From IMG/VR virus record IMGVR_UViG_3300045988_079530, positions 1 through 47,459 of that record: a stretch of 47,459 nt of DNA, one strand, 5' to 3'. A program made the position numbers and the translations under genes. Numbering within the stretch: the stretch's first letter is position 1; the number at the start of each line of letters is the position of its first letter. Below, in pieces: positions 14,741-47,459 of the stretch. The DNA is from a virus. The notes beneath the pieces are model-generated. The model saw only the letters and a list, made by a program, of their open reading frames with translations, was not told where the DNA came from and ran no database searches.

Positions 14741-15220
14741 TTACCTATCTAAATGGGTTGGATATTCCATAATTACATCTTTAGTGTATACTAGATTAAA
14801 TATACCCAGCTGGCCTTTTACAGGGAACTCTATAACCTTTCTCGGATCTCTTAAAAACCATCCAAAGCCTTTCCCTTTTTCCTTTAATTGCTGAATAATG
14901 TAGGATGGGATCTTAGTTCTCTTCCATTCTTCATCGGTCAGCTCAGACAAAGGTTTGCAGTCATACATTTGCACGAATGCTATTGTGCATCCATATCTAT
15001 TGCTATCTCCAGTCTTAGACATTCCATCTTTGCTAGCACAAATAAGGAGTTTCCCTCGATACTTATTAGGTCTACTTCTGACCTCTATAGTTTTTTCTCC
15101 GCTAGCTATATATCCAGCATAAGGCTGTTTTACTGACAAAGCCTTAAATATATCATGCTTTTCTGCATCGTATTGTTTTACCGAGTATTGCATCTTATTT
15201 ATATTTGGGTGTCCTTTCAA
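14741..15220 (-). CDS. ASCH (PUA-like) domain protein
   Basis: ALSVKQPYAGYIASGEKTIEVRSRP matches the ASCH N-terminal signature. Confidence 0.6.
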   Translation of the reverse strand: MKGHPNINKMQYSVKQYDAEKHDIFKALSVKQPYAGYIASGEKTIEVRSRPNKYRGKLLICASKDGMSKTGDSNRYGCTIAFVQMYDCKPLSELTDEEWKRTKIPSYIIQQLKEKGKGFGWFLRDPRKVIEFPVKGQLGIFNLVYTKDVIMEYPTHLDR

Positions 15221-15394: not shown

Positions 15395-15805
15395 TCAAAA
15401 TGGTAAATCGTCTTTTTCATTATTTGTCATAGGTGGAGGCGGTGTTTCTGTACTACCTTTTTGTCCTTCTTTTTTAGGTGTCAGCATCTCCATGTTATTT
15501 ACATATATCTCCGTTACATATCTTTTAATTCCGTTTGAATCTTCATAGCTTCTATTTCTTATCTCTCCCTCAACGTATAATTTATCTCCCTTTTTCAAGA
15601 ATTTTTCCGCTACTTTAGCAAGGCCATTAGATAAAACTATATTATGCCATTCAGTACGTTCGGGAATTTCCTTTCCATCTGTAGTTTTAAATCCTTTCTT
15701 TGTAGTAGCTAAAGTAAATTGCGCTACTACTCCACCATTTCCAAATTGAGTAATTTCCGGATCTTTTCCTAAATTACCCATTAAAATTGCTTTATTTACA
15801 CTCAT
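15395..15805 (-). CDS. ssb: Single-stranded DNA-binding protein
   Basis: OB-fold start MSVNKAILMGNLGKDPE, TEWHNIV, and the acidic C-terminal tip DDLPF. Confidence 0.9.
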   Translation of the reverse strand: MSVNKAILMGNLGKDPEITQFGNGGVVAQFTLATTKKGFKTTDGKEIPERTEWHNIVLSNGLAKVAEKFLKKGDKLYVEGEIRNRSYEDSNGIKRYVTEIYVNNMEMLTPKKEGQKGSTETPPPPMTNNEKDDLPF

Positions 15806-19070: not shown

Positions 19071-19245
19071 AGTCCAAATTTTTTTCTAATTTTTTCGCTA
19101 CTATGTTAGCTACTACGTTCATGAAAAAATCGTTGTCGTTCTCTGATTTTATATTTTCCGGATCTGTATATTTCCGGGCTATATCTAACAACTCCTTTAA
19201 CATTGTGTTGTTTTCCCTTAAAAGCCTTTTTTCTTCTTCATCCAT
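19024..19245 (-). CDS. Hypothetical protein (~73 aa)
   Basis: The likely start is MDEEEKRLL at 19245, preceded by AGGAGGT. Confidence 0.45.
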   Translation of the reverse strand: MDEEEKRLLRENNTMLKELLDIARKYTDPENIKSENDNDFFMNVVANIVAKKLEKNLDYEQRHVKHTRYTTTP

Positions 19246-19774
19246 TGTTCTGCACCTCCTTTCGTTTATATCTCCAAACAAATCCTTTATAACTCTTTCC
19301 TTTACCTCTACATACTGCACAAATATTTGTTGCTGTTATATTTAATTCCCTTGCTGCTGAATGAATACTTTGATGTATTTTTATAACAACTCCATTTTTT
19401 ACTTGTTCTATTTGTATTTCATGATGTGCTTTAGCTTTTCTATTTTTAAATTTATTTTTTGTAATAGGGTTGTTTTGGTTTTCTTTGTTAGTTACCCATC
19501 TTAAATTCTCCACCCTATTATCTGAACGGTTTCCATTAATATGGTCTATACACGGTTTTCTTTCCGGGTTAGGTATAAATGCTTGAGCAACCAATCTATG
19601 AACTCTATACATCTTACCGATACCGTTTTTCCACAAACTTATAATCCTGTACCCTTTTAAATTAGCGTTTCTTTTTATTTTTCCTCCGTTCTTTATATTT
19701 ATTACATTTCCTTTATCGCTAACCATATAAAGTCCTTCATAGCCCTCAATATCTTTCCATATTTCTTTTTCCAT
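19238..19774 (-). CDS. HNH homing endonuclease (NUMOD4 + HNH_3)
   Basis: EIWKDIEGYEGLYMVSDKGNV (NUMOD4) and HRLVAQAFIPN...IDHINGNRSDNRVENLRWVT (HNH). Confidence 0.85.
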   Translation of the reverse strand: MEKEIWKDIEGYEGLYMVSDKGNVINIKNGGKIKRNANLKGYRIISLWKNGIGKMYRVHRLVAQAFIPNPERKPCIDHINGNRSDNRVENLRWVTNKENQNNPITKNKFKNRKAKAHHEIQIEQVKNGVVIKIHQSIHSAARELNITATNICAVCRGKGKSYKGFVWRYKRKEVQNNG

Positions 19775-23604: not shown

Positions 23605-23620
23605 ATAATTTATGTTTAAA

Positions 23621-23838
23621 GTTCTAGGTATCTGCCTAGTCAGTTTAGGGGTTATTCCCTTTTGATGTCACAAAAGTAAATCATTTTTTAAAATAACAAA
23701 AATTATTTTATACTTTTTTCTTGATCATCTATTAAAAAAATAATTTAATCAGAATTTTCGTTTTAAGCTACTTTCTGTTCTAGGATATATATTTTATCAT
23801 CGATAAAAATAAATCGCTTAAACAGGCTTATTTTAGCT
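23621..23838. repeat. ~220-bp non-coding repeat, copy A (homologous to 31679-31900; its promoter-proximal ~60 bp also match 30625-30682)
   Basis: Hand alignment shows shared blocks: ttctaggtatctgcctagtcagttt, gatgtcacaaa, aataattt(t)aatc(a)gaattttcgttttaagc, ggatatata, cttattttagct. Confidence 0.85.
23671..23700 (-). promoter_or_regulatory. Early promoter A (TTTG-N18-TACTTTTG)
   Basis: Read on the minus strand. It is followed by the conserved leader and the ATPase gene. Confidence 0.6.
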
Positions 23839-27630: not shown

Positions 27631-28943
27631 AAGTCCATATTATTAAGTAAATCATTTATTTCGTCTTTCTTCTTGTTTTTAGACGTTTTCAGCCCCTCTG
27701 ACTGATTTTCTTTTTTATTTGTATCATCCTTACACTGGGAATTATTTTCTTCGTCTGAGGGCTTAATTTCATCGTCTTTAGGCTTTTCTTTCGATATATT
27801 TACCCCTAAAGCCTTTTCAGCTTCCTTAATTTCTTCTTCTGTAATACCTTCTTCCGGGGTTTTTTCCTTCTTTGTCTTATACTTCTTGACTACATCTGAT
27901 AGATTAAGCTCTGTTATATTATTTTCTAGACTTGGCTTATCGAGATCTATTATACCATTGCAGAAGGTCATTGTATTATCTCTCTTTTCGTCTTCTATAC
28001 GAGCCAGCTCTACTAGGTAAGGTAATTTTTGAGCATTCTTACTATCGGTCTGATCCTTGAAATTGTAAGTAGGTGTAGTTCCCCTCCAGTCTTTAGGAGA
28101 CCAGTTAAAGACACGATCAACAGGGTGTGCAGGGAAATGAATATTCCACATAGTCTTATAAGCATGAAGCTGGACTTCGTGTTCCGGGAAAAATCCCTTT
28201 CTTCCGGACTTAAAATCAATAATACCCCTAATTCTGATCTGACGTTTGGTTTCTTTGGGTTTTCCAGCATTAGCGCCAGTCTTATATACTTCCCCAAAGA
28301 ATCCTTTTTCCTCTATAGTTAATTCTGCTGCTAGATCTATAGCTCCAGCGTACCCGTCATTTGGATTTGTAAGAACCAGCTCTATTGCCAGCGGCTTTAA
28401 GTTGGTATCTTTCATAAATTGAGCAAAAGCCAGTATATCCTTCTTTAGATCATCTGCATAACCAATAAAATCAGATGGGAGCTGCTCGCTTTCGATATAT
28501 AGCTTTAAACGATCCTTTAACTTATCTAGGTTATAAGATCTAGCTATTAGAAGCTCTGCTATTTGCGCATGCATGAATGTTCCGTAAGCAGCCCTTTCAG
28601 CGGTATAACGCTGACTTTCTTCGTAACCCATATCCGCAATCCATTTTAGCAAACTGGGAGAAGTAGGTAACGTCTGTTTGATCAGAGTAGTTACACTGAC
28701 GTAAAAACGAGGCTCCCCGTCTTCTTCGAACGTGTAGTAGTATCTGTGTCCGCTGCTGTCTAGACGATAAACAGGTTCGGGCTGTTCCTGTAGTGCATCC
28801 TCGTTAAAGAACTCTGCCTGTATCTTTTCAGAAGTCATTCCCGGTGCAATCTCAAATGCTCCATTACTTTCTGCACCTTCTATTATTTCCATACCATTAA
28901 TTACTTCCTTAGTAATATCCTTACCCTCTGTTAATTCTTTCAT
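27627..28943 (-). CDS. RecB-family PD-(D/E)XK exonuclease (Cas4/AddB-nuclease-like) with a K/E-rich C-terminal tail
   Basis: YGTFMHAQIAE, GAIDLAAE, GIIDFKSGRKG, and QLHAYKTMW (the QxxxY motif). Confidence 0.75.
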   Translation of the reverse strand: MKELTEGKDITKEVINGMEIIEGAESNGAFEIAPGMTSEKIQAEFFNEDALQEQPEPVYRLDSSGHRYYYTFEEDGEPRFYVSVTTLIKQTLPTSPSLLKWIADMGYEESQRYTAERAAYGTFMHAQIAELLIARSYNLDKLKDRLKLYIESEQLPSDFIGYADDLKKDILAFAQFMKDTNLKPLAIELVLTNPNDGYAGAIDLAAELTIEEKGFFGEVYKTGANAGKPKETKRQIRIRGIIDFKSGRKGFFPEHEVQLHAYKTMWNIHFPAHPVDRVFNWSPKDWRGTTPTYNFKDQTDSKNAQKLPYLVELARIEDEKRDNTMTFCNGIIDLDKPSLENNITELNLSDVVKKYKTKKEKTPEEGITEEEIKEAEKALGVNISKEKPKDDEIKPSDEENNSQCKDDTNKKENQSEGLKTSKNKKKDEINDLLNNMDL

Positions 28944-29089
28944 AATACTTTTGATTTTGAATGTTTTATAATATATAAGCTAGTTAAAATAAACGCTGTA
29001 AAATACAGCCAAAATTGGAACTTGAGACCTTCTGCTGTATTAATCAGCATTAATATGGAAAAAATCCATATAGAAACTATTGTTTTCAT
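28940..29089 (-). CDS. Small two-helix membrane protein (49 aa)
   Basis: MKTIVSIWIFSILMLINTAEGLKFQFWLYFTAFILTSLYIIKHSKSKVL. ATGA start/stop overlaps at both ends argue for translational coupling. It is below the ORF-track cutoff. Confidence 0.5.
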   Translation of the reverse strand: MKTIVSIWIFSILMLINTAEGLKFQFWLYFTAFILTSLYIIKHSKSKVL

Positions 29090-29328
29090 TTTTTCGCCTC
29101 CTTAATACCTAGCAAGAAATCAGAGCTGCATCCTGTCTCCTTGCAAATTATTACGATCCACTCCGGATTTACCTTCTTAGTAGCCCCCTTACACAAATTA
29201 GCCATATTAACCTTTTGCGTGTCCGGGCTGCTGTTAGGCCAAATCTTTGCAGCTAGATCTTTTTTCAATACTTCTTTCCCATTCTTTTTAGAAAGCTCGA
29301 TAGCTTCATTTACTTTTAATTGTGACAT
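29086..29328 (-). CDS. XRE/Cro-like helix-turn-helix protein
   Basis: 80 aa with LKKDLAAKIWPNSSPDTQKVNMANLCKG...ICKETGCSSDFLLG. It is the first gene after a terminator/promoter pair. Confidence 0.55.
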   Translation of the reverse strand: MSQLKVNEAIELSKKNGKEVLKKDLAAKIWPNSSPDTQKVNMANLCKGATKKVNPEWIVIICKETGCSSDFLLGIKEAKK

Positions 29329-29416: not shown

Positions 29417-29494
29417 ATCTTAACAGAGGGGTAGGAATATTAACGACACAAAGATATGTATTTTATCGTTAATATCAAACCCATCTTATTATTT

Positions 29495-30607
29495 TTAGTG
29501 CTTTACCCGGTTCATAAGATCCCCTGCTATTTCTTGGAGATCTCTTTGCCTTCTAGGTTCTAGTTCTCTACTATGGGCCGTAATTCCTTGAACCAATTTC
29601 CAAAGAGTACTTTCCCCGGTGACACCATCATCCGGCTTATTTGCCATAAGGATTTTTTCTACCCCTTTTGCTTCATCCTTAGTCAGCTTTCCTTTTTGCA
29701 AGCTCTTTAGCTCCTTTTCCATGTCTACTTCCATAGAACTTGCTCCTTGGATCTCTAAGGCTCTTTGGGTAATACTTTCCTTGCTGAATATCCCTTTAGT
29801 AAGATCCTTAATTGCGCTTGCCTGTGTCTTCGTATCAAGTTCATAAGTTCGCTGGCTTAACTTTATATTGTCCGGCAAACGTCCTCCTAAATGAACTTGC
29901 CTCATTACACTTTGTCTGCACATTCCATTAAGACAAACACCCTGCATCAGAAATGCTCTTAGCTCTAAAGCTCCGTCTCCATAGTCACTTGTAGAAAGCC
30001 TAGCACCGAAAGCCATTTCTACGATCCCGTTTTTCTCTGTTGGTATTGCTATCGTCTCCGGCATTAATACCTCCAAATAAATTCGGGTTGCATCCATAAA
30101 TCCATCTGCAAGCTGGCCACCCATTTTATTGGCCGTTTCAAGAAAGCTCATAATTATAGTCTCGCTATTAAGTCTTCTATAACTATCTGACAGGACACCA
30201 CGAACTTCATTTCCTACGGTACGAACCAGCGTTCTAGTTCTATTAGTCCATGTACTATGTTCGTTAAGTATAGTGGAAGCTAAATTCCTTTGCCAATCAT
30301 TACCGCTTGCCAGTTCTCTTAGATACTTAGATGGGATATTGAATTTATCTCCTAGCTGGCCAATAGCATTGTCGTGGATTTTATAAACTCCATCATCCCC
30401 AAGTTTCATTTCAACAGAATCAGATGCGTTAAACAGAACCTCCGATTTTCTAGTATTATTAGCACCTAGATAAGCTATAAAATCGTTTGCTACCTTACCT
30501 TCTTCAATAAGTTTCGCTACAGCTTGTTGTGCGTTCATACTACCAGTCTGAATACGTCTTGCGATTCTCTCTCTGATCACATTGTTTAAGCCTTCTTGTA
30601 ATTCCAT
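29495..30607 (-). CDS. DUF932-like phage/plasmid protein (tentative)
   Basis: The true start is MELQEGLNN at 30607; the ORF-track start at 30673 lies inside the conserved leader. VRGVLSDSYRRLNSE, STSDYGDGAL and QGVCLNGMC resemble DUF932 blocks as I remember them. Confidence 0.4.
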   Translation of the reverse strand: MELQEGLNNVIRERIARRIQTGSMNAQQAVAKLIEEGKVANDFIAYLGANNTRKSEVLFNASDSVEMKLGDDGVYKIHDNAIGQLGDKFNIPSKYLRELASGNDWQRNLASTILNEHSTWTNRTRTLVRTVGNEVRGVLSDSYRRLNSETIIMSFLETANKMGGQLADGFMDATRIYLEVLMPETIAIPTEKNGIVEMAFGARLSTSDYGDGALELRAFLMQGVCLNGMCRQSVMRQVHLGGRLPDNIKLSQRTYELDTKTQASAIKDLTKGIFSKESITQRALEIQGASSMEVDMEKELKSLQKGKLTKDEAKGVEKILMANKPDDGVTGESTLWKLVQGITAHSRELEPRRQRDLQEIAGDLMNRVKH

Positions 30608-30624
30608 AATTTTAAGTTTTAATT

Positions 30625-30703
30625 TTCTAGGTATCTGCCTAGTCAGTTTAGGGGTTATCCCTTTTGATGTCACAAAGGTAAATAATTGTTTTAATTGAGC
30701 AAA
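30625..30703 (-). promoter_or_regulatory. Early promoter B (TTTG-N19-TACCTTTG) plus the conserved two-hairpin leader
   Basis: This is the third copy of the ~60-bp core shared with 23621-23682 and 31679-31741. Confidence 0.6.
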
Positions 30704-30705
30704 AT

Positions 30706-31101
30706 TTATCTAGATAATAATTCGTCAATCTGTTTTTTAATTTCTAAAGCCAGCTCTAGGCCATTCTCCTTAAAGGTCTGTGTCTCGCTACATACATTAT
30801 CTTTGTATGTTATGCAAGTAAATGTTCCATCCAGCTTGCATACATTAAGTCTCGGCCTTCCATAATACATATCTATTTTTATCGAGGGCTGCATTTTATT
30901 TTTATCCCTTTCTTCCTCAAAGATAGGATATATATACCTGCACCGATTAATTGTTACAGGATCTTTAGACATAAGTCCTACATACCGATTTCCCCAAAAG
31001 GAATCGTTTCTTGCATCTAGGACATCTTTACTTACTTCGATGTAACCATACTTTTTAGCTTCTCTTTCTGCTACTATCAGCATTGCTTCATTTACCGTCA
31101 T
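30706..31101 (-). CDS. Hypothetical early protein (131 aa)
   Basis: ORF with no motif. Confidence 0.6.
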   Translation of the reverse strand: MTVNEAMLIVAEREAKKYGYIEVSKDVLDARNDSFWGNRYVGLMSKDPVTINRCRYIYPIFEEERDKNKMQPSIKIDMYYGRPRLNVCKLDGTFTCITYKDNVCSETQTFKENGLELALEIKKQIDELLSR

Positions 31102-31139
31102 AATTATTTGTTTTATTCCGGGGATCTCTCCCCGTATAG

Positions 31140-31373
31140 TTAATACTTAAATGGTTTTATTTCTTTATTTTTCATATAAGAATGAAATGCCTCTTTACTA
31201 CAAGCATAAGTTTCCGATAGGATTAACCCGTTTTGATATATTATTGTTTTATTTCCTACATAGGAATCTGTTTGGTATCTTTTACCTGCTTCCTCAAAAC
31301 CTGTGATATAAATAATATATTTAATTCCGCAAATTTTGTAAGTAAACCACTTGTTTATATATTGCTTTCTCAT
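31140..31373 (-). CDS. Hypothetical early protein (77 aa)
   Basis: ORF with no motif. Confidence 0.5.
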   Translation of the reverse strand: MRKQYINKWFTYKICGIKYIIYITGFEEAGKRYQTDSYVGNKTIIYQNGLILSETYACSKEAFHSYMKNKEIKPFKY

Positions 31374-31411
31374 AATTAATAGTACCGGGTAACCGCCCGG
31401 TCGGGTTTTAG

Positions 31412-31666
31412 TTATTTTGAATAGAAAGAAATTTTCAGTCCTCTTCTCAGTTTACAGATCAGCTTATCCATTCCTTTATCGAACGCTTTCGCAATAAACT
31501 TGTTAGCCAGCTCTATTCCTATAGCTTTGATCAATCCAGCAACACCTACCAGCGTATTTATCTTCTTTCCGTTTTCATCAACTCCGGAGATCTTGATGCG
31601 GAAGTTTAAGTTAATCATTCTAGTAGAAAAATTCAAACCTGTGTAAATAGTTGCGTTCATAATCAT
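31412..31666 (-). CDS. Hypothetical early protein (84 aa), first gene after promoter C
   Basis: ORF. The start could be at 31666 or 31660. Confidence 0.55.
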   Translation of the reverse strand: MIMNATIYTGLNFSTRMINLNFRIKISGVDENGKKINTLVGVAGLIKAIGIELANKFIAKAFDKGMDKLICKLRRGLKISFYSK

Positions 31667-31678
31667 TATTATTAATTA

Positions 31679-31900
31679 GTTCTAGGTATCTGCCTAGTCA
31701 GTTTGGAGGTTATCTCCTTTCTTTGATGTCACAAAGGTAAATCAATTTTTTAATTCCACAAAATTTTTGGGACCTTTTTTTACGTCTTATCTGATAAAAA
31801 ATAATTTTAATCGAATTTTCGTTTTAAGCCATCATTTCTTACGGGATATATAATTTATATATTGATAGAAAATAATCGCTAAGAAAGCCTTATTTTAGCT
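31679..31900. repeat. ~220-bp non-coding repeat, copy C (homologous to 23621-23838)
   Basis: Hand alignment; see copy A. Confidence 0.85.
31732..31762 (-). promoter_or_regulatory. Early promoter C (TTTG-N19-TACCTTTG)
   Basis: Minus-strand read. Confidence 0.6.
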
Positions 31901-33684: not shown

Positions 33685-33715
33685 CAAAGATATTGTTTTT
33701 TTTTCGCAAAGCAAA
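33685..33715 (-). promoter_or_regulatory. Bacteroidota-type promoter (TTTG-N19-TATCTTTG) ahead of the lysis cassette
   Basis: Minus-strand read in the 76-bp gap. Confidence 0.5.
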
Positions 33716-36099: not shown

Positions 36100-36396
36100 A
36101 TGGAAAATGAAGTAAATAGGACAAAAGTCTCAATCTCAGATAGAGAATCCGAAGTTATTGAATGTTTGTCTCACGGCTTATCAGAAAAAGAAATAGGCGA
36201 GAAGTTATATATCTCGCCTAAAACCGTTAAAAACCATCTGAATAATATCAGAAGAAAACTAGGTGTTCAAAAGAACATTGAAATAATAGCATACTATATT
36301 GCAAATTTGCGCGGAAAGAAATTTGATCCTAAGTTACTCCATGAATACGGAATAAGTATTTTTATTCTTTTCTTAAATATCTGCAAAATAGAATGA
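36100..36396 (+). CDS. LuxR/GerE-family helix-turn-helix regulator (stand-alone HTH, 98 aa)
   Basis: SDRESEVIECLSHGLSEKEIGEKLYISPKTVKNHLNNIRRKLGV. This is the only credible plus-strand gene. Confidence 0.8.
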   Translation: MENEVNRTKVSISDRESEVIECLSHGLSEKEIGEKLYISPKTVKNHLNNIRRKLGVQKNIEIIAYYIANLRGKKFDPKLLHEYGISIFILFLNICKIE

Positions 36397-37541: not shown

Positions 37542-37572
37542 CAAATATATGTATTTTATTTAATAAAAAAAA
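37542..37572 (-). promoter_or_regulatory. Promoter-like element (TTTT-N19-TATATTTG)
   Basis: Minus-strand read. The -33 lies in the terminator U-tract. Confidence 0.35.
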
Positions 37573-37598
37573 GCCCTGCCGAAATTAATCAGCAGGAC
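37564..37598 (-). terminator. Rho-independent terminator ending the late/tail operon
   Basis: Short stem CCTGC/GCAGG (plus one flanking G:C pair), followed by U8 on the minus strand. Confidence 0.5.
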
Positions 37599-37678
37599 TT
37601 AAAAATTCTAATACCTATTTTTTATTTACCCCTTATGAATTTGATGCAAATGTACTAATTATTTTTTAAATAGCAAAT

Positions 37679-39444: not shown

Positions 39445-42400
39445 TTATTGATCATCCAAAGTACGAACTTCTTCATAGCCTAGCTTTTTAAGTAGTTTTT
39501 TTAATATGACTATTTCTCTCTCAAGTTTCTTGATTTTCTTATCGGTTCTTGTTTCATAAGTTAGCAAGTGTCTGGCCGTATGAACGGCAAACGTATATGC
39601 TACTGTTGCATAGTCCATGCTCAAGAAATTATCCTTTTCTTCCACTGCCCACGGAAGGACAGACTGAGTATATTGTGCTGATCCTCCCAAGTTCAGTCTA
39701 TCGCATTTCATTCCTTCCCTGTTCCAGTGGTAAACGAAGGAAGGCGCTTTCGCTATATCTAATAATGATAATTTAACTTGTTGTATAATTGATTTATAAC
39801 GAATATCTGATCCATATAAAGTTACCCCACCAGTAACAAGTAGATTTCCTTCCACATATAAATGATTATTTGCGCCATCAAGTGATATAAACATTTTTGC
39901 CGCTCTATTAGAACCTTCATATTGATATACTCCTAATCTCATTTCTCCCCAGCTATTATTATAATTTCGAACACATCCGATAATATAAGATGTTTGCCAT
40001 CCACTGGCTGCTGAATCATACCATCCCAATATATTTCGTATATTTCCAGCAGGAATAGCGCCAACACCTTCCGACATAAACCTACAACTATAAATATCAG
40101 AAGCATTATTTAAATTATTTGCAATATATCCACCACCACCATTTCTATAAGATCCGTTACCGAGATAAACTGATTTTTCACCGTAACTTCGTATGAAATA
40201 AGTATCAGACATATACCATCCACCACCACCTCTAATACTATACCAACCTGAATCTCCTTGAGATCTAAACCAATCATTCGCAACATAAGAATTTGCGTAA
40301 ACTCTTGCGTCAGATGCCAATGTTAAAACATTACCTGCTGAAGTGTAAAATAATATACCTGCATATCCTGAAATATGAATTTTACTATCTCCTCCGTATG
40401 TAAATCCATACCAAGGATAACCATTATCGTGAGCGTCTGCTGGATTATATGCGAATGTTTTAGCATTCACATGAGCAAAATTAGTATTAATATTACCTAC
40501 ATTACTCATATCTCCACTTACGTTTTGAGTACCATTGAAACTTTGCCCCCATAGAGTTCTTGCGGTTTGAAGTTTTGTAGCAGAAGCCACATTGTCTGTT
40601 ATAAAAGCTAATTCATTCCATCCTAGCCAATTATCACCGTTATCTCGTAGACTTCTGTAATATATTCTATTGGCATTATTCCAGCTAAGCAATAATTCTC
40701 CAGCACCACCACCATTTACGCTTAATAAGTTACCGTAAGGTGTTGGATAACCATTGTTATACACTTGATAAAGTCTTACACCACTAGCAGGGGAGGTATT
40801 ACCAGTAGCAGCGGTTTTATTACCTTGAAAAGTAAGACCAACAACATTCGCGTTTAACGTAACATTTGCAGATCCGTCTAAACTTACAGATCCGGATAGA
40901 TAAGAACCTAGTGTTATAGTTCTAGCTGTTGCCCATTTACTTGCCGTAGCTGCATTCCCTGTAATTCCTATACCCCATGTACCACTGGCACCACTACCCG
41001 TTTTTGTCGGTGCGTCTGTAATTCCATACCCGGCCAATGTAGTCGGTTTGCTAGTTACCTCTACAAAAGAAGGCCATCTTGTAACGTATGCAGACGGAGC
41101 AGCCTTCAATAAGGCATCCCAATTGGCGTGCAAATCCGAAATTGTAGCAATGCTAACAGAAGTAAGATAGTTCTTACTAGTTACCCAGCTTTCAGTAGCG
41201 TACCCGGTTAAAGCAGTAGTAAGGTGCGACTTATTGATCTGTTCCGTGGTAGATCCGGCCAATGCCGTCCACATGGCAGACTTGTCGAAGGATGATCCGC
41301 TACCCTCTCTTGCTTTCAGAACTTTAGATCCTTCCACCTCTGACCAATAGATAGTATCGTTATCTATAGGCAAACCGTCATAGATAGTGTCAAAACCTTG
41401 CGCCCCTGTTGCATACATAGTAAGTGCCCCGGTTAATGCTAGATTTCCTTCCAGTATTAATGCTCCGTCTTCCAGCTTTCTTAACTTAATTCCAGCAATA
41501 GTTACCCAGTCCGATGCTGCCAGCGAAGGTGCTGTAATAGCTCCGGATGCCTTGATAGCGGCTGTATTCAATACAGAGGAAAAAGTCTTTTCCCCGGTTA
41601 TTGTCTGCTTAGTTCCCAGTGTAACGAAAGTACTATCTACATATTTTTTGTCGGCCTTTGTTTCTAGGATCTCTGCTAGATTATCCGTTTCTGCCATTCC
41701 GGACAAAAACGCTTCTAGTTCCTTCCACTTATTAATAATTTCATCCGTATCAGATCCTTCCAAAAAGTCATTTAACTTATTAGATACCGAAGCCAAAGCG
41801 GATGCAGTTGCATAATTCTGAGATACCCAACTTTCCGTAGCGAACCCTGTTAATGCTGTTGTAATATGGGATTTATCTATTTGCTTTTCTGAATCAGAAG
41901 TAGCAAGAGCAACCCACATAGCATTTTCATCAAAAGAACTTCCTGCACCTGCTACAGCTTTTAGTACATTGTTTTCCTTTTTGATAGTAATACCATCAAC
42001 CGCAACAGCATCCATAATTGTAGATACAGATCTACCAGCCGTTGCGTAAAATGTCATTCCTCCAGTAACAGCTACATCTGCATCTATATATACTACCCCT
42101 TCTTCTTCGTATATCTTTTTCTTAGATTTTCCAACAGAAAGACCGGGTGTAAAATGCTTTAGACCGGATATTTCCTGCTCTGTATCAATAGTGACATATT
42201 TTTCCGCTATTTCTTCTTTGGTATAAAACGGCTTTTCTCCTTGTATTTCTGACCAATTATAAGTAGGCTTAGTATCTCCGATCCATGTAGGCTTTCCGGA
42301 AATGTTACCCCATTGAACAGATCCTGCTTCGCCTCCACCTCCTTTAGCCTTTAACACCTTAGATCCATCAACAATTTCCCAATAGATAGTATCGTTATCT

Positions 42401-43689
42401 ATAGGCAAACCGTCATAGATACTACCAACACCCTGCGTTCCTGCGGCATACATAGTAAGCCCCCCGGTTAATGCTAGATTTCCATCAATAAACAAGCATC
42501 CGTCTTTTTCGTAGGCTTTAATCTTTGATGATCCTATAGTTATTCCAGCGTTAAAGTTCTTAACACCTAAAACATTCTGTTCTGTTGCATCAGTAGTGAC
42601 AAAGTTAGAAGTATCTATATTTTCTCCGATCCCGGCCAGCAAGTTAGATAGAAGTATCTTTTTTGCAGCTCCTTCTCCAGTATCTAACACTGCATAATAA
42701 TTATCCTTATACTCCTTTAGTTCCTCAAGCTCTCGTATAAGTAAGCCATTAACAAGGTTAGACACACCGCTCCCCTGTATATAAGACTTGTAATATTGCG
42801 CTATTGATTCATCATCAAATCCAAGTGGTGTGTTTACATCTACCAATAGCGCGTTATAAAAAGACTCTTTTACCCTACGATTAAAGCTGGCAATCTTTTG
42901 AATAATGTTATCTACGGTAAATTCAGCTTCTACAGAAGCTAAGTCCCCCTGTGCCTGCCATTCCGGTTCGTAAGCAAAAGTAAGGGCATTATAATTTCTG
43001 CCATTCTCCGAGATCTGAATATAATCAGACAAGCGAACAAGCCGGAGGCCATCGCACAAAAATTCCGGAGCAATAAACTTGAATTTATAAGTCTTGCTAG
43101 ATATTTGACTTTCTAGGAATGGATATCCACCCCTTTTTGTCAGTTCTTCTTCAAAATCGTACTCCGGCTTTCCTATTGTAGCTTGTATGTAGCATACAAA
43201 TTTAAAATCTCCTTCGTAATTAATTTCTCCGCCAGTATAATATATATTATCATCATTCCAGTAGGTTATTTTCAGATAATTTTCTACTGAATCACAGGCT
43301 ACAAAAACCTCCGAATAATAGGTATATTGCTTACTTGATCCCTGTAATTTAAGGATCAAATAATAAGTTCCGCTTTTTAAGGTATAAGATCCCGGGAAAG
43401 CTGTTTCTTTTAGCTTAATCACGGAATATCCTAAAGAACTGAACTTATTAATAATTTCCGGCTTAGTTAATTCAGAGTAAACCTCACTACCGGACTTAGC
43501 ATCAACAACAGAGAAGGATATAACAGAGGCTATATCATCCTGTACAATTAACTGAAATGGTATTACAGCATCATTCCTTGAGATAAGAGGAAAGACACTT
43601 CCGTATGCATACCATTTTTTCCCGTTCTGATACTTCAAATCTTCGTAGAAAGGAAGTACGTTAAGGCTGTTATAGTGTTCCATAATCAT
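39445..43689 (-). CDS. Tail fibre protein with a C-terminal intramolecular-chaperone (Peptidase_S74-type) domain
   Basis: 1414 aa with threefold internal modules (...NLALTGGLTMYA.G.QG...YDGLPIDNDTIYW...) and fibre-repeat motifs (AATASKWATARTITLG, ASATKLQTARTLWG). GSDIRYKS...KKLEREIVILKKLL occupies the last ~121 aa (39448-39810). Confidence 0.85.
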   Translation of the reverse strand: MIMEHYNSLNVLPFYEDLKYQNGKKWYAYGSVFPLISRNDAVIPFQLIVQDDIASVISFSVVDAKSGSEVYSELTKPEIINKFSSLGYSVIKLKETAFPGSYTLKSGTYYLILKLQGSSKQYTYYSEVFVACDSVENYLKITYWNDDNIYYTGGEINYEGDFKFVCYIQATIGKPEYDFEEELTKRGGYPFLESQISSKTYKFKFIAPEFLCDGLRLVRLSDYIQISENGRNYNALTFAYEPEWQAQGDLASVEAEFTVDNIIQKIASFNRRVKESFYNALLVDVNTPLGFDDESIAQYYKSYIQGSGVSNLVNGLLIRELEELKEYKDNYYAVLDTGEGAAKKILLSNLLAGIGENIDTSNFVTTDATEQNVLGVKNFNAGITIGSSKIKAYEKDGCLFIDGNLALTGGLTMYAAGTQGVGSIYDGLPIDNDTIYWEIVDGSKVLKAKGGGGEAGSVQWGNISGKPTWIGDTKPTYNWSEIQGEKPFYTKEEIAEKYVTIDTEQEISGLKHFTPGLSVGKSKKKIYEEEGVVYIDADVAVTGGMTFYATAGRSVSTIMDAVAVDGITIKKENNVLKAVAGAGSSFDENAMWVALATSDSEKQIDKSHITTALTGFATESWVSQNYATASALASVSNKLNDFLEGSDTDEIINKWKELEAFLSGMAETDNLAEILETKADKKYVDSTFVTLGTKQTITGEKTFSSVLNTAAIKASGAITAPSLAASDWVTIAGIKLRKLEDGALILEGNLALTGALTMYATGAQGFDTIYDGLPIDNDTIYWSEVEGSKVLKAREGSGSSFDKSAMWTALAGSTTEQINKSHLTTALTGYATESWVTSKNYLTSVSIATISDLHANWDALLKAAPSAYVTRWPSFVEVTSKPTTLAGYGITDAPTKTGSGASGTWGIGITGNAATASKWATARTITLGSYLSGSVSLDGSANVTLNANVVGLTFQGNKTAATGNTSPASGVRLYQVYNNGYPTPYGNLLSVNGGGAGELLLSWNNANRIYYRSLRDNGDNWLGWNELAFITDNVASATKLQTARTLWGQSFNGTQNVSGDMSNVGNINTNFAHVNAKTFAYNPADAHDNGYPWYGFTYGGDSKIHISGYAGILFYTSAGNVLTLASDARVYANSYVANDWFRSQGDSGWYSIRGGGGWYMSDTYFIRSYGEKSVYLGNGSYRNGGGGYIANNLNNASDIYSCRFMSEGVGAIPAGNIRNILGWYDSAASGWQTSYIIGCVRNYNNSWGEMRLGVYQYEGSNRAAKMFISLDGANNHLYVEGNLLVTGGVTLYGSDIRYKSIIQQVKLSLLDIAKAPSFVYHWNREGMKCDRLNLGGSAQYTQSVLPWAVEEKDNFLSMDYATVAYTFAVHTARHLLTYETRTDKKIKKLEREIVILKKLLKKLGYEEVRTLDDQ

Positions 43690-45903: not shown

Positions 45904-47459
45904 CTTATTATCTGTTTTACGTTTTTCTTAATTTTCAAAATAGTCCCATTTGCAGCCATATAAATTTGCTGTTCATTCTGCTTCTTAATAGCACTAAGAT
46001 CCCCTTCGATTTTACTCAGATCCACATTATTATTTCCTAGTAAGATCATGTCATTACCATTAGTCATAAATGCAGATTCATATTTTGATTCGAAAGTTCC
46101 ATTATTAATGCTTTTTATTATCTGTGGCAGCTTCTTTCTATATTTCCTAGTAGATTTTTTGTTTATAATAGCAAAAGCCTCTCCCCCTTCTGCCCTTCTC
46201 TTCCGGCCATCCGGGGTAGTACCCATATCTATATCATTTCCGCTTTGATGACTTCCTCCTTCTAGGAACTCTATACCTCCTTCTCCATATTCCAGCTTAG
46301 TTACTTGCTGGGCTTTTATCTTAGCAGCCGCGAAGCTAGTCCACATAGTAGCAATAGCGGCTATGGCTGCGGCCACACCAAACGGGCCAAGACCGGACAT
46401 AGATTTCCATATATTAGCAGATGCAGTGATCAAGCTGGAAGACTGGGTTAAAGCATCTAAAGCCTGTTGCTGTCTCTGTGCAGCCTGTTTATCCTTTAAT
46501 GCCTGTTGCTCTTTTTTCTTTGCCAGCTCCAGTTCTTTCTGTGCAGTTGCTACATCATTTGCATAGCCATTATTTCTAGCCTCTATTTCTTGATCTAGTC
46601 TCGTCTGAGCAGCATCCACCTCTTCTTGCGCATTCTCCAGCATTGCATTTTTTGCTTCTGTCTGAGCAGATAAAAATGACTGTAATTGCGAAATTGAAAA
46701 GTTTACACTTTCACTAATAGCTTGCTTCTGTTCATCATTAAGTTTAAGTCCTATTAAGTCATAAATATCTCTATTCTGATCCTTAATACCAGTTTGAGCT
46801 ATTTCGTTATCTATTTTTTCTATTGTGTTTTTTAGAATCTGAATCTCTTTATCTCCCATTTGTTTTTGGCCACTTTCAACAAGCTGCAACAGCTTTTTAA
46901 GCCTTTCCTTCTCTGCTTGCAATTTAAGTTTTGTCTTTTCATTTTCAGTTATCTTCATCAGATCAATCTCAGACAGCCTTAAATTATATTCATCTTCTAC
47001 AGATTTTTCAGTTAATTTATTTCTTTCTTCTATCTGCTTCTGCTGTTCCTTTGCTGCTTTATCTGCATATTTTTTCCTAATACTTTCTTCTTCTTGAGCC
47101 ATTTTAATGGTCTTCTCTGCTATAGTTTTTTGTATAGCCTCCCTAGCTTCATTCGTAAGATTCTTTTCTTTTTCCAGCGTTGTTTTTAAGTCCTCTATTT
47201 CCTGTCTATATTTGGAGTTAGACATTTCTATTTCTTTTTGCATTCCTTCCTCCATTATATCAAGGCGAGCGCTTTCTTCTTCCCGGACATATTGCAAAGT
47301 ATTATCTTTTTCCTCCTTCTGCTTATTAGTCTTTCCATTACCTTTTTTTGTCCCGAACAATGAAGAAACATCTATTTGCTTAGTTAATTCCTTATCTGCT
47401 TTCTGTAACTCGTAAAGTTCCCTTCTAGCATTTTTAGCAGCTTCCGAGAAATTATCTAC
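45900..47459 (-). CDS. Tape measure protein, C-terminal part (continuation of 1..1451 across the circular join)
   Basis: The frame stays open upstream of the ORF-track TTG at 47360 to the window end, and continues in frame from bases 1451-1 through the overlap. The hydrophobic stretch GLGPFGVAAAIAAIATMWTSFAAA is typical of tape measure proteins. Confidence 0.8.
   Translation of the reverse strand, partial: VDNFSEAAKNARRELYELQKADKELTKQIDVSSLFGTKKGNGKTNKQKEEKDNTLQYVREEESARLDIMEEGMQKEIEMSNSKYRQEIEDLKTTLEKEKNLTNEAREAIQKTIAEKTIKMAQEEESIRKKYADKAAKEQQKQIEERNKLTEKSVEDEYNLRLSEIDLMKITENEKTKLKLQAEKERLKKLLQLVESGQKQMGDKEIQILKNTIEKIDNEIAQTGIKDQNRDIYDLIGLKLNDEQKQAISESVNFSISQLQSFLSAQTEAKNAMLENAQEEVDAAQTRLDQEIEARNNGYANDVATAQKELELAKKKEQQALKDKQAAQRQQQALDALTQSSSLITASANIWKSMSGLGPFGVAAAIAAIATMWTSFAAAKIKAQQVTKLEYGEGGIEFLEGGSHQSGNDIDMGTTPDGRKRRAEGGEAFAIINKKSTRKYRKKLPQIIKSINNGTFESKYESAFMTNGNDMILLGNNNVDLSKIEGDLSAIKKQNEQQIYMAANGTILKIKKNVKQIIR
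47341..47459. repeat. Terminal direct repeat, copy 2 (circular-closure overlap)
   Basis: Identical to bases 1-119, read directly. Confidence 0.95.

Follow-up and report, generated by a model that had tools for sequence, protein, structure and literature searches.

A compact, covarying RNA pseudoknot just upstream of early genes in a phage genome and its uncultivated relatives

Introduction

The nearest described system to the RNA element reported here is the leader of gene 32 of the T-even phages. In T4, T2 and RB69 this leader folds into an H-type pseudoknot of two coaxially stacked helices, which serves as a translational operator and stands 5' of an unstructured A/U-rich stretch of UUAA(A) repeats reaching the ribosome-binding site; it lies 67 nt 5' of the initiation codon of a single gene, and the repressor is the product of that gene, the single-stranded DNA-binding protein (SSB) (PMC3014915). 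We analysed IMG/VR virus record IMGVR_UViG_3300045988_079530 over its whole length of 47,459 nucleotides (hereafter the window) and describe a 20-nt pseudoknot that precedes early genes in this phage and in its relatives. As in gene 32, an H-type knot stands 5' of an unstructured A/U-rich stretch that leads to the initiation region, and UUAAA repeats are found in the window leaders too, such as AAAAUUAAAACUUAAAAUUAUG in the copy named B below. The T2 gene 32 knot likewise has a single-nucleotide loop 1. The two systems share no sequence homology, however, and the present host works without Shine-Dalgarno pairing. Moreover, the present knot lies within 0-23 nt of the AUG and, in this genome, precedes four unrelated early genes. 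The SSB gene is not one of them and has no knot, so that the autogenous arrangement of gene 32 is not found here.

Other systems share single features with this element. In the T4 RegA/RegB systems one phage factor shuts off many early messages at their initiation regions, and the operator of Escherichia coli rpsO (S15) contains a pseudoknot next to the start codon (PMC3014915). The logic that we propose below would be that of RegA and RegB, with a shared site found in early initiation regions only; the rpsO knot, in contrast, belongs to one autoregulated gene, whose ribosome-binding site and start codon it overlaps, whereas the present knot is multi-copy and already ends before the expected 30S footprint is reached. 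RegA sites are unstructured and A/U-rich, RegB cleaves GGAG and neither is known to use a pseudoknot; among the window proteins scanned there was no homologue of RegA or RegB. Lambda nut and HK022 put are likewise short repeated RNAs 3' of early phage promoters, in which the hairpin sequence varies among related phages and the shape is kept. Their target is RNA polymerase and their position is not fixed relative to start codons, whereas the present knot is tied to the AUG and some of its copies lack a promoter. In boxB a GNRA-like pentaloop is closed by 5 bp, and put consists of two stem-loops, both required, that together span about 70 nt. The element described here is a new RNA motif that belongs to a familiar class, the cis-regulatory leader structures.

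Results

The conserved core is an H-type pseudoknot

Three near-identical minus-strand cassettes, at 23605-23700 (copy A), 30608-30703 (copy B) and 31667-31762 (copy C), were found where an earlier note on this DNA had placed them, and its description of a promoter followed by a structured leader RNA was borne out. The copies align nearly base for base, from TTTG through TAC(C/T)TTTG and TGACATCAAA to a 23-nt block, AAACTGACTAGGCAGATACCTAG, which occurs exactly three times in the window (23624-23646, 30627-30649 and 31682-31704; none expected by chance). The second of two hairpins in this leader had been reported as identical in all copies. It is indeed invariant within the three cassettes of this genome, but it forms part of a pseudoknot rather than a plain hairpin, and its sequence covaries across genomes. 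The element conserved among relatives consists of this hairpin and of the CUG just 5' of it, which pairs with the first three bases of the loop (CAG). The resulting 20-nt architecture can be written X3-A-S5-X'3-NUA-S'5, with 3 bp in helix X/X', 5 bp in helix S/S' and no spacer between S and X'. As the helix order X, S, X', S' crosses, the conserved core is a compact H-type RNA pseudoknot.

Relatives were reached through homologues of the 370-aa protein encoded after copy B (eight contigs, 63-91% identity), and their leaders were collected by listing what follows each Bacteroidota-type promoter. Together with IMG/VR contigs matching one sequence pattern and two contigs from a genome collection, this gave 50 distinct instances from the window and 17 related contigs (an earlier set held 29 sequences). 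Standard pairs fill 98.3% of the cells, against 72.1% in shuffles; the three pairs of X/X' are formed in 95.3% and the five pairs of S/S' in 100% of cells. All eight pairs show changes on both sides, with 87 double-change cells compared to 14.7 +/- 3.2 after shuffling (0 of 500 shuffles). The covariation score of 0.709, against 0.195, was likewise reached in none of 500 shuffles, and shifting the partners by 1-3 columns left only 19.5-50.8% of them paired. Thus the leaders of related phages, where the earlier note had suggested looking for covariation, keep the fold through double changes at every pair. The set contains eleven different complementary X/X' triplet combinations, among them CUG/CAG, CCG/CGG, CCU/AGG, ACG/CGU, CGC/GCG, GCC/GGC, UCG/CGA, UCC/GGA and ACC/GGU, and about 15 stem variants, including CUAGG/CCUAG, UCCGG/CCGGA, CCGGG/CCCGG, CCGGA/UCCGG, CCAAG/CUUGG, CGCGG/CCGCG, UUAGG/CCUAA and CUAUG/CAUAG.

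All four wobble cells (in helix 2) are G.U on the sense strand, and all 50 instances lie on the coding strand; we therefore place the element in the mRNA rather than in DNA or in an antisense transcript. A DNA operator for a dimeric protein, such as a phage helix-turn-helix (HTH) or LuxR-type regulator, is suggested by the stem, an inverted repeat near promoters, and by two phage genes. One encodes a GerE/LuxR-type protein (36100-36396, plus strand) and the other a small protein of 80 aa (29086-29328) that the earlier note called HTH and that has no Pfam match. We nevertheless consider such an operator most improbable. The half-sites differ even within one genome (CTAGG, CCGGG and CGGGG in the window; TCCGG and CCGGG in relative L003), 16 copies lie far from any promoter, and only the complementarity persists, with G.U pairs in it and with an X/X' helix whose crossing would be meaningless in duplex DNA. 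Of the RNA structure and the palindromic protein site between which the earlier note left the choice, the former is thus favoured: it is complementarity that is kept and not sequence, which argues against a palindromic DNA site.

The geometry of the element is constant. Every full pseudoknot of the set has 5 bp in S and 3 bp in X, and only two unpaired bases are well conserved: the A of loop 1 (49 of 50 instances) and a U in the middle of loop 3 (at least 90%). Loop 1 places 1 nt over the 5-bp helix and loop 3 places 3 nt over the 3-bp helix, lengths that would accord with the classical steric rules. This fixed geometry, set against a hairpin 1 (see below) and terminators that vary freely, argues for recognition of a defined shape. 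The knot is close in size and class to the smallest aptamers and has an A-rich tail; the preQ1-I aptamer is likewise a very small H-type knot with a 5-bp first stem and an A-rich tail near the initiation region. A very small, preQ1-I-like ligand-sensing riboswitch is hardly credible, however. The second helix of preQ1-I is made by the loop and the 3' tail, whereas here it is made with the 5' flank; the conserved unpaired positions are too few for a pocket; and the downstream genes are functionally unrelated to one another and to queuosine metabolism. Moreover, Rfam gave no match at gathering thresholds over the whole window and, at E <= 10 over 30550-31800, returned unrelated chance matches only.

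The pseudoknot is tied to the start codons of early genes

In all 50 instances, the ATG of an open reading frame (ORF) of at least 43 codons lies within 0-23 nt downstream of the knot, most often at 17-21 nt, a condition that a random genome position would satisfy only a few per cent of the time. A -7 promoter box lies within 70 nt upstream in 34 instances and is missing in 16. In copies A, B and C the spacers between structure and ATG measure 19, 19 and 21 nt and are A/T-rich; that of copy C would shorten to 15 nt with an upstream in-frame ATG, but the homologues have 82 aa and favour ATG 31660. The knot thus stands at the 5' edge of an initiation region that has no Shine-Dalgarno sequence, and in the window copies the stretch from knot to AUG is A/U-rich and predicted to be unpaired. 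The modal 5' untranslated region (UTR) of Bacteroides thetaiotaomicron is 23 nt (PMC7366714), so that the knot stands where an ordinary mRNA would begin. Bacteroidota ribosomes ignore the Shine-Dalgarno sequence and require, close to the start codon, an A-rich region free of structure (PMC3155529, PMC6847099). From the UTR length and this unstructured start region, we locate the knot at the start of the 30S footprint.

The pseudoknot is restricted to the early module. A covariance model run over the complete genome with filters off returned five copies and no other convincing match, all five between 31709 and 23618, i.e. within the early replication/recombination module, and no knot before packaging, head, tail or lysis genes. 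The two copies outside the cassettes have no promoter. Pseudoknot D, the best match of the window, had appeared only as terminator-like in a consensus scan. It lies in a 38-nt intercistronic gap, starting 7 nt past the stop codon of the 82-aa gene (31414-31412) and ending 11 nt before ATG 31373 of a 77-aa ORF, and the equivalent position is occupied in three relatives (L016, L018, L019). Variant E is a hairpin closed by a GNRA tetraloop, not a knot: it has a 6-bp stem (-10.8 kcal/mol for the 20-nt core), and its X/X' positions are complementary at 2 of 3 only. It resembles the GNRA hairpins that precede the 370-aa gene in L003, L006, L007 and L008.

The earlier note had proposed a put-like leader that modifies RNA polymerase. 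A processive antitermination signal of the HK022 put or lambda nut kind, in which leader RNA with or without a phage protein modifies the polymerase, would fit the position of the cassettes just 3' of early promoters in a one-directional genome punctuated by several intrinsic terminators. Nut sites can also be intra-operonic, and a small 5-bp hairpin after a semi-conserved linear stretch superficially recalls boxA and boxB. We consider this explanation improbable. The upstream "linear box" actually pairs with the loop and covaries, no boxA (CGCUCUUA-like) adjoins the hairpin, and the loop has 6 nt, of which 3 are paired, and is not a GNRA-like pentaloop. The element also lacks the two long stem-loops of put: its core is 20 nt and hairpin 1 is dispensable in 17 of 31 leaders of relatives. 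A tight link to the start codon is not required by polymerase modification, and the 16 copies without promoter are intercistronic. Finally, read-through is not needed for expression because each early unit has its own promoter. The proposal of a put-like leader is thus not supported.

Host-type promoters and an accessory hairpin precede three of the copies

The primary sigma factor of Bacteroidota (sigma-A, sigma-ABfr) recognizes a -33 TTTG and a -7 TAnnTTTG with N19 spacing (PMC7366714). All three cassettes carry TTTG-N18/19-TAC(C/T)TTTG and thus agree with this consensus. The window contains the pattern TTTG-N17-21-TAnnTTTG 9 times, always on the minus (coding) strand, against an expectation of 1.68; none of 100 shuffles reached 9 matches. 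By consensus match, we take the cassettes to be ordinary host-type (Bacteroidota sigma-A) early promoters. The promoter motif that the earlier note had seen in all copies was thus real, but it had gone unrecognized as the ordinary consensus described for this phylum (PMC7366714). Copy A precedes a gene for a 488-aa SMC/ABC-like ATPase (ATG 23604) and copy C that of an 82-aa protein (phrog_32997), the first early gene. The 370-aa protein encoded after copy B (phrog_1362, ATG 30607) has homologues of 370 aa that support its start; it has no Pfam match, and its former label "DUF932-like" was not confirmed. A differently built conserved promoter stands before the holin/lysis module and is also found in relatives (L003 at 7302, L007 at 6960); there is no knot there.

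Between the -7 box and the pseudoknot of copies A, B and C lies hairpin 1. The compensatory changes described for it held up, since two pairs are altered on both sides in copy C relative to A and B while the loop AUAAC is kept. Among promoter-proximal leaders of relatives, however, a hairpin occurs between the -7 box and the core in only 14 of 31, and its length and loop vary. Hairpin 1 is therefore an optional 5'-proximal accessory stem-loop: it covaries within the genome, but the emphasis laid on it by the earlier note was misplaced. Its (A)AUAAC loop recalls the UAAC loop found in the T4 gene 43 operator; we regard this as a coincidence, since a T4-like polymerase did not turn up among the scanned window proteins.

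The similarity of copies A and C continues upstream of the promoter in another block of about 105 nt (23735-23838 and 31796-31900, 78-80% identity), so that their duplicated unit spans about 240 nt; copy B lacks this block. On examination, the block contained only A/T-rich, low-complexity inverted repeats. The duplication raises the question of whether the knot itself does little and is mainly a by-product of promoter cassettes that move or are duplicated, comparable to the promoter-stem-loop shuffling modules of T4-type phages. The near-identity of the three window copies, the greater similarity of copies within than between genomes and the variation among related phages of the gene that follows the cassette would all fit. 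Yet neutral relics would not keep two helices through 87 double substitutions, copies without promoter exist and the spacing to the AUG is constrained; we hold this explanation to be very improbable.

Genome, relatives and distribution

The 119 bases at the start and end of the window are identical (1-119 and 47341-47459). The window is thus a complete phage genome of 47,340 bp, circularly assembled or terminally redundant, with a G+C content of 36.6% and nearly all genes on the minus strand. In transcription order, the replication/recombination module comes first (exonuclease, Gp3-like, O-like initiator, DEDDh nuclease, SMC-like ATPase, MazG, SSB and ASCH-domain protein) and is followed by the terminase/portal/head, tape measure/tail/tail fibre and endolysin plus DUF6549 modules. 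The early-to-middle gene train also contains an HNH/NUMOD homing-endonuclease gene. A 175-nt direct repeat (78% identity) inside the 1414-aa tail-fibre gene probably reflects an internal domain duplication. Coordinates are collected in Table 1.

Table 1. Coordinates of the leader elements and other features of the window
Feature	Position	Strand	Sequence or parts	Remarks
Promoter C	31732..31762	-	-33 TTTG 31759-31762; -7 TACCTTTG 31732-31739	Bacteroidota sigma-A type
Hairpin 1, copy C	31705..31717	-	GGAG-AUAAC-CUCC	RNAfold -5.1 kcal/mol, z = -3.6 (segment from -7 box to pseudoknot, as for B and A)
Pseudoknot C	31682..31701	-	CUG-A-CUAGG-CAG-AUA-CCUAG	34.0 bits; 21 nt before ATG 31660
Pseudoknot D	31385..31404	-	CCG-A-CCGGG-CGG-UUA-CCCGG	35.1 bits
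Hairpin-only variant E	31119..31134	-	CGGGGA-GAGA-UCCCCG	21.9 bits; 17 nt before ATG 31101 (131-aa ORF)
Promoter B	30673..30703	-	-33 TTTG 30700-30703; -7 TACCTTTG 30673-30680	
Hairpin 1, copy B	30650..30662	-	AGGG-AUAAC-CCCU	RNAfold -5.0 kcal/mol, z = -3.3
Pseudoknot B	30627..30646	-	CUG-A-CUAGG-CAG-AUA-CCUAG	31.3 bits; 19 nt before ATG 30607
Promoter A	23671..23700	-	-33 TTTG 23697-23700; -7 TACTTTTG 23671-23678	
Hairpin 1, copy A	23647..23660	-	AGGG-AAUAAC-CCCU	RNAfold -5.3 kcal/mol, z = -4.5
Pseudoknot A	23624..23643	-	CUG-A-CUAGG-CAG-AUA-CCUAG	29.7 bits; 19 nt before ATG 23604
Terminator closing the lysis module	31941-31910			Strong; copy C directly downstream
Candidate small RNA unit	29479 to about 29375	-	Promoter 29449-29479; transcript of ~74 nt; intrinsic terminator	Directly after the 370-aa gene
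Inverted repeat at small-RNA promoter	29437-29475	-	ATATTAACGA ... TCGTTAATAT	Flanks the -7 box
Second short unit	37570-37677	-	Promoter 37647-37677; ~80 nt; strong intrinsic terminator	No ORF
Promoter before holin/lysis module	33685-33715	-	TTTGC...CGAAAAAAAA...TATCTTTG then CGAAGTA	
SSB gene	15395-15805			
ASCH-domain protein gene	14741-15220			
HNH/NUMOD homing-endonuclease gene	19238-19774	-		
Direct repeat in tail-fibre gene	41297-41471 and 42332-42506			

No near-identical DNA was found by megablast of 10 kb against 50,697 phage records, and neither the exact 23-mer core nor the promoter-plus-linker pattern had a match in IMG/VR. The closest cultured phage, Croceibacter phage P2559S, has only 44% protein identity. 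Distant homologues of the 370-aa protein sit in Bacteroides conjugative transposons, and one related contig was binned as Prevotella; together with the Bacteroidota-type promoters, this points to a member of the Bacteroidales as host. The nearest cellular homologues of this protein (56% identity) are found in CTnDOT-like conjugative transposons (L048 1-21164, Bacteroides contig QRTK01000016.1), where they adjoin genes for an N6 methyltransferase and for DUF4120/DUF4121. The protein family is common to phages and conjugative elements.

The knot is missing from the CTnDOT-like elements that carry these homologues. A distant relative, L001 (53% identity), has no cassette, and the element is therefore restricted to a narrower phage group. 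When one common sequence variant was searched against 185,579 bacterial and archaeal species genomes, 27 matches were obtained, of which 25 arose by chance in G+C-rich DNA; the remaining two lie on contigs with phage-like leaders and in the right context. Full-text literature searches returned no description of the pseudoknot element.

A candidate phage small RNA pairs with an early initiation region

A short unit directly after the 370-aa gene, with its own promoter and intrinsic terminator, has the appearance of a phage small RNA. The unit recurs in relatives, where it carries a conserved single-stranded seed, CAUCGCUCUCGGUU; the complement of this seed occurs in many of their early-gene initiation regions ('...AGAGCGAUG'), notably in codons 2-6 of the exonuclease gene. 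The single-stranded 5' part of the window small RNA pairs with the start of its own exonuclease gene (28924-28943, minus strand) at -23.0 kcal/mol, an energy as low as which was found in none of 300 shuffles, but with the targets of relatives at only -6 to -9 kcal/mol. Conversely, the small RNAs of relatives form good duplexes with targets that share their seed class and poor ones with the window target. As seed and target both differ in the window and still match, while cross-pairing with relatives is weak, they appear to have undergone compensatory change, the seed belonging to a putative trans-acting RNA. Duplex energies of the window small RNA with the five knot leaders were no better than those of shuffles; the small RNA is therefore not acting through the knot in the present phage.

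The inverted repeat on either side of the -7 box in this small-RNA promoter may serve a phage repressor as its operator. The second short unit, with a Bacteroidota-type promoter, may be another small RNA or an attenuator.

Discussion

Our preferred interpretation, which we put forward tentatively, is that the pseudoknot is a shape-specific post-transcriptional operator shared by the early genes and placed at the 5' edge of their initiation regions. One trans-acting partner would recognize the shape of the knot and not its sequence. This postulated partner could be a phage protein produced in the course of infection, either an RNA-binding protein or a nuclease, or else a constituent of the host 30S subunit. 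Its binding would govern the loading of the 30S subunit on the adjacent initiation region, by blocking or promoting it, and would secondarily affect mRNA lifetime, as a bound factor could also mark the message for cleavage. The outcome would be a common, temporally controlled expression of the early gene set. Of the "common operator or translational control site" suggested in the earlier note, it is translational control that we retain, and not the DNA operator. Candidate partners include the ASCH-domain protein, the SSB, the early proteins of 82, 77 and 131 aa and the 80-aa putative HTH protein.

Several points weigh against this interpretation. No binding partner was identified among the candidates examined: the 82-aa first early protein, which is always preceded by a knot, has no Pfam or PDB sequence match, its AlphaFold model, although confident (pLDDT 81.6), gave no Foldseek match below E = 0.09, and the 131-aa protein has no PDB match. 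The occurrence of GNRA hairpins in the place of the knot suggests that any compact stable structure may suffice there, which would favour a passive role. The set of instances was built in part through stem complementarity and one sequence pattern, and the percentages of paired positions are somewhat inflated by this. The variety of triplets is unaffected, because the way in which instances were collected cannot create a diversity of complementary triplets; in the contigs obtained by pattern, the copies that do not match the search pattern are still nearly all fully complementary in X/X'. Finally, copies within a genome are more alike than copies from different genomes, and gene conversion could account for some of the apparent conservation.

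The knot could alternatively be a passive cis element without a dedicated partner, which shields the message from 5'-end-dependent decay and keeps upstream sequence off the A/U-rich landing site of the ribosome. In leaders without hairpin 1 the knot stands 9-23 nt past the -7 box and is thus the first structure in the transcript, and at some sites it is replaced by the GNRA hairpins. The T4 gene 32 leader, with its pseudoknot, also reportedly stabilises its mRNA. The need of Bacteroidota initiation for low secondary structure around the start codon (PMC6847099, PMC3155529) points the same way. However, a stabiliser or insulator should allow variable stem and loop lengths, as hairpin 1 does, whereas the knot keeps its helix lengths, the A of loop 1 and the U of loop 3 constant across very different sequences. 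Late genes, from which an equal benefit would be expected, have no knot. We therefore regard a purely passive role as rather unlikely, and continue to favour recognition of the knot by a partner.

A further alternative is a Shine-Dalgarno-independent ribosome-recruitment or standby element, in which the knot would dock on the 30S platform or on protein S1 of Bacteroidota ribosomes, whose anti-Shine-Dalgarno sequence is sequestered. S1 handles structured 5' UTRs on the 30S platform, according to two studies (PMC3858243, PMC7038950). We consider this role unlikely. If true, early phage messages would be prioritised over host mRNAs by a minimal bacterial analogue of a viral internal ribosome entry site and, together with the phage small RNA that pairs with initiation regions, such a recruitment element would make up a phage post-transcriptional regulon.

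How the mRNAs of Bacteroidota and of their phages attract or exclude ribosomes without Shine-Dalgarno pairing is still poorly understood. The pseudoknot provides a concrete handle on initiation in this phylum, being short, multi-copy, strongly covarying and at a fixed distance from start codons. It is easily mutated and compensated, portable into reporters and a possible bait for its binding partner, and Bacteroides engineering might gain from it a compact part for expression. Homologues of the first early gene alone number 739, and the group forms a large set of uncultivated Bacteroidales phages of about 45 kb; the knot would add a new RNA family for annotating the early regions of such phages.

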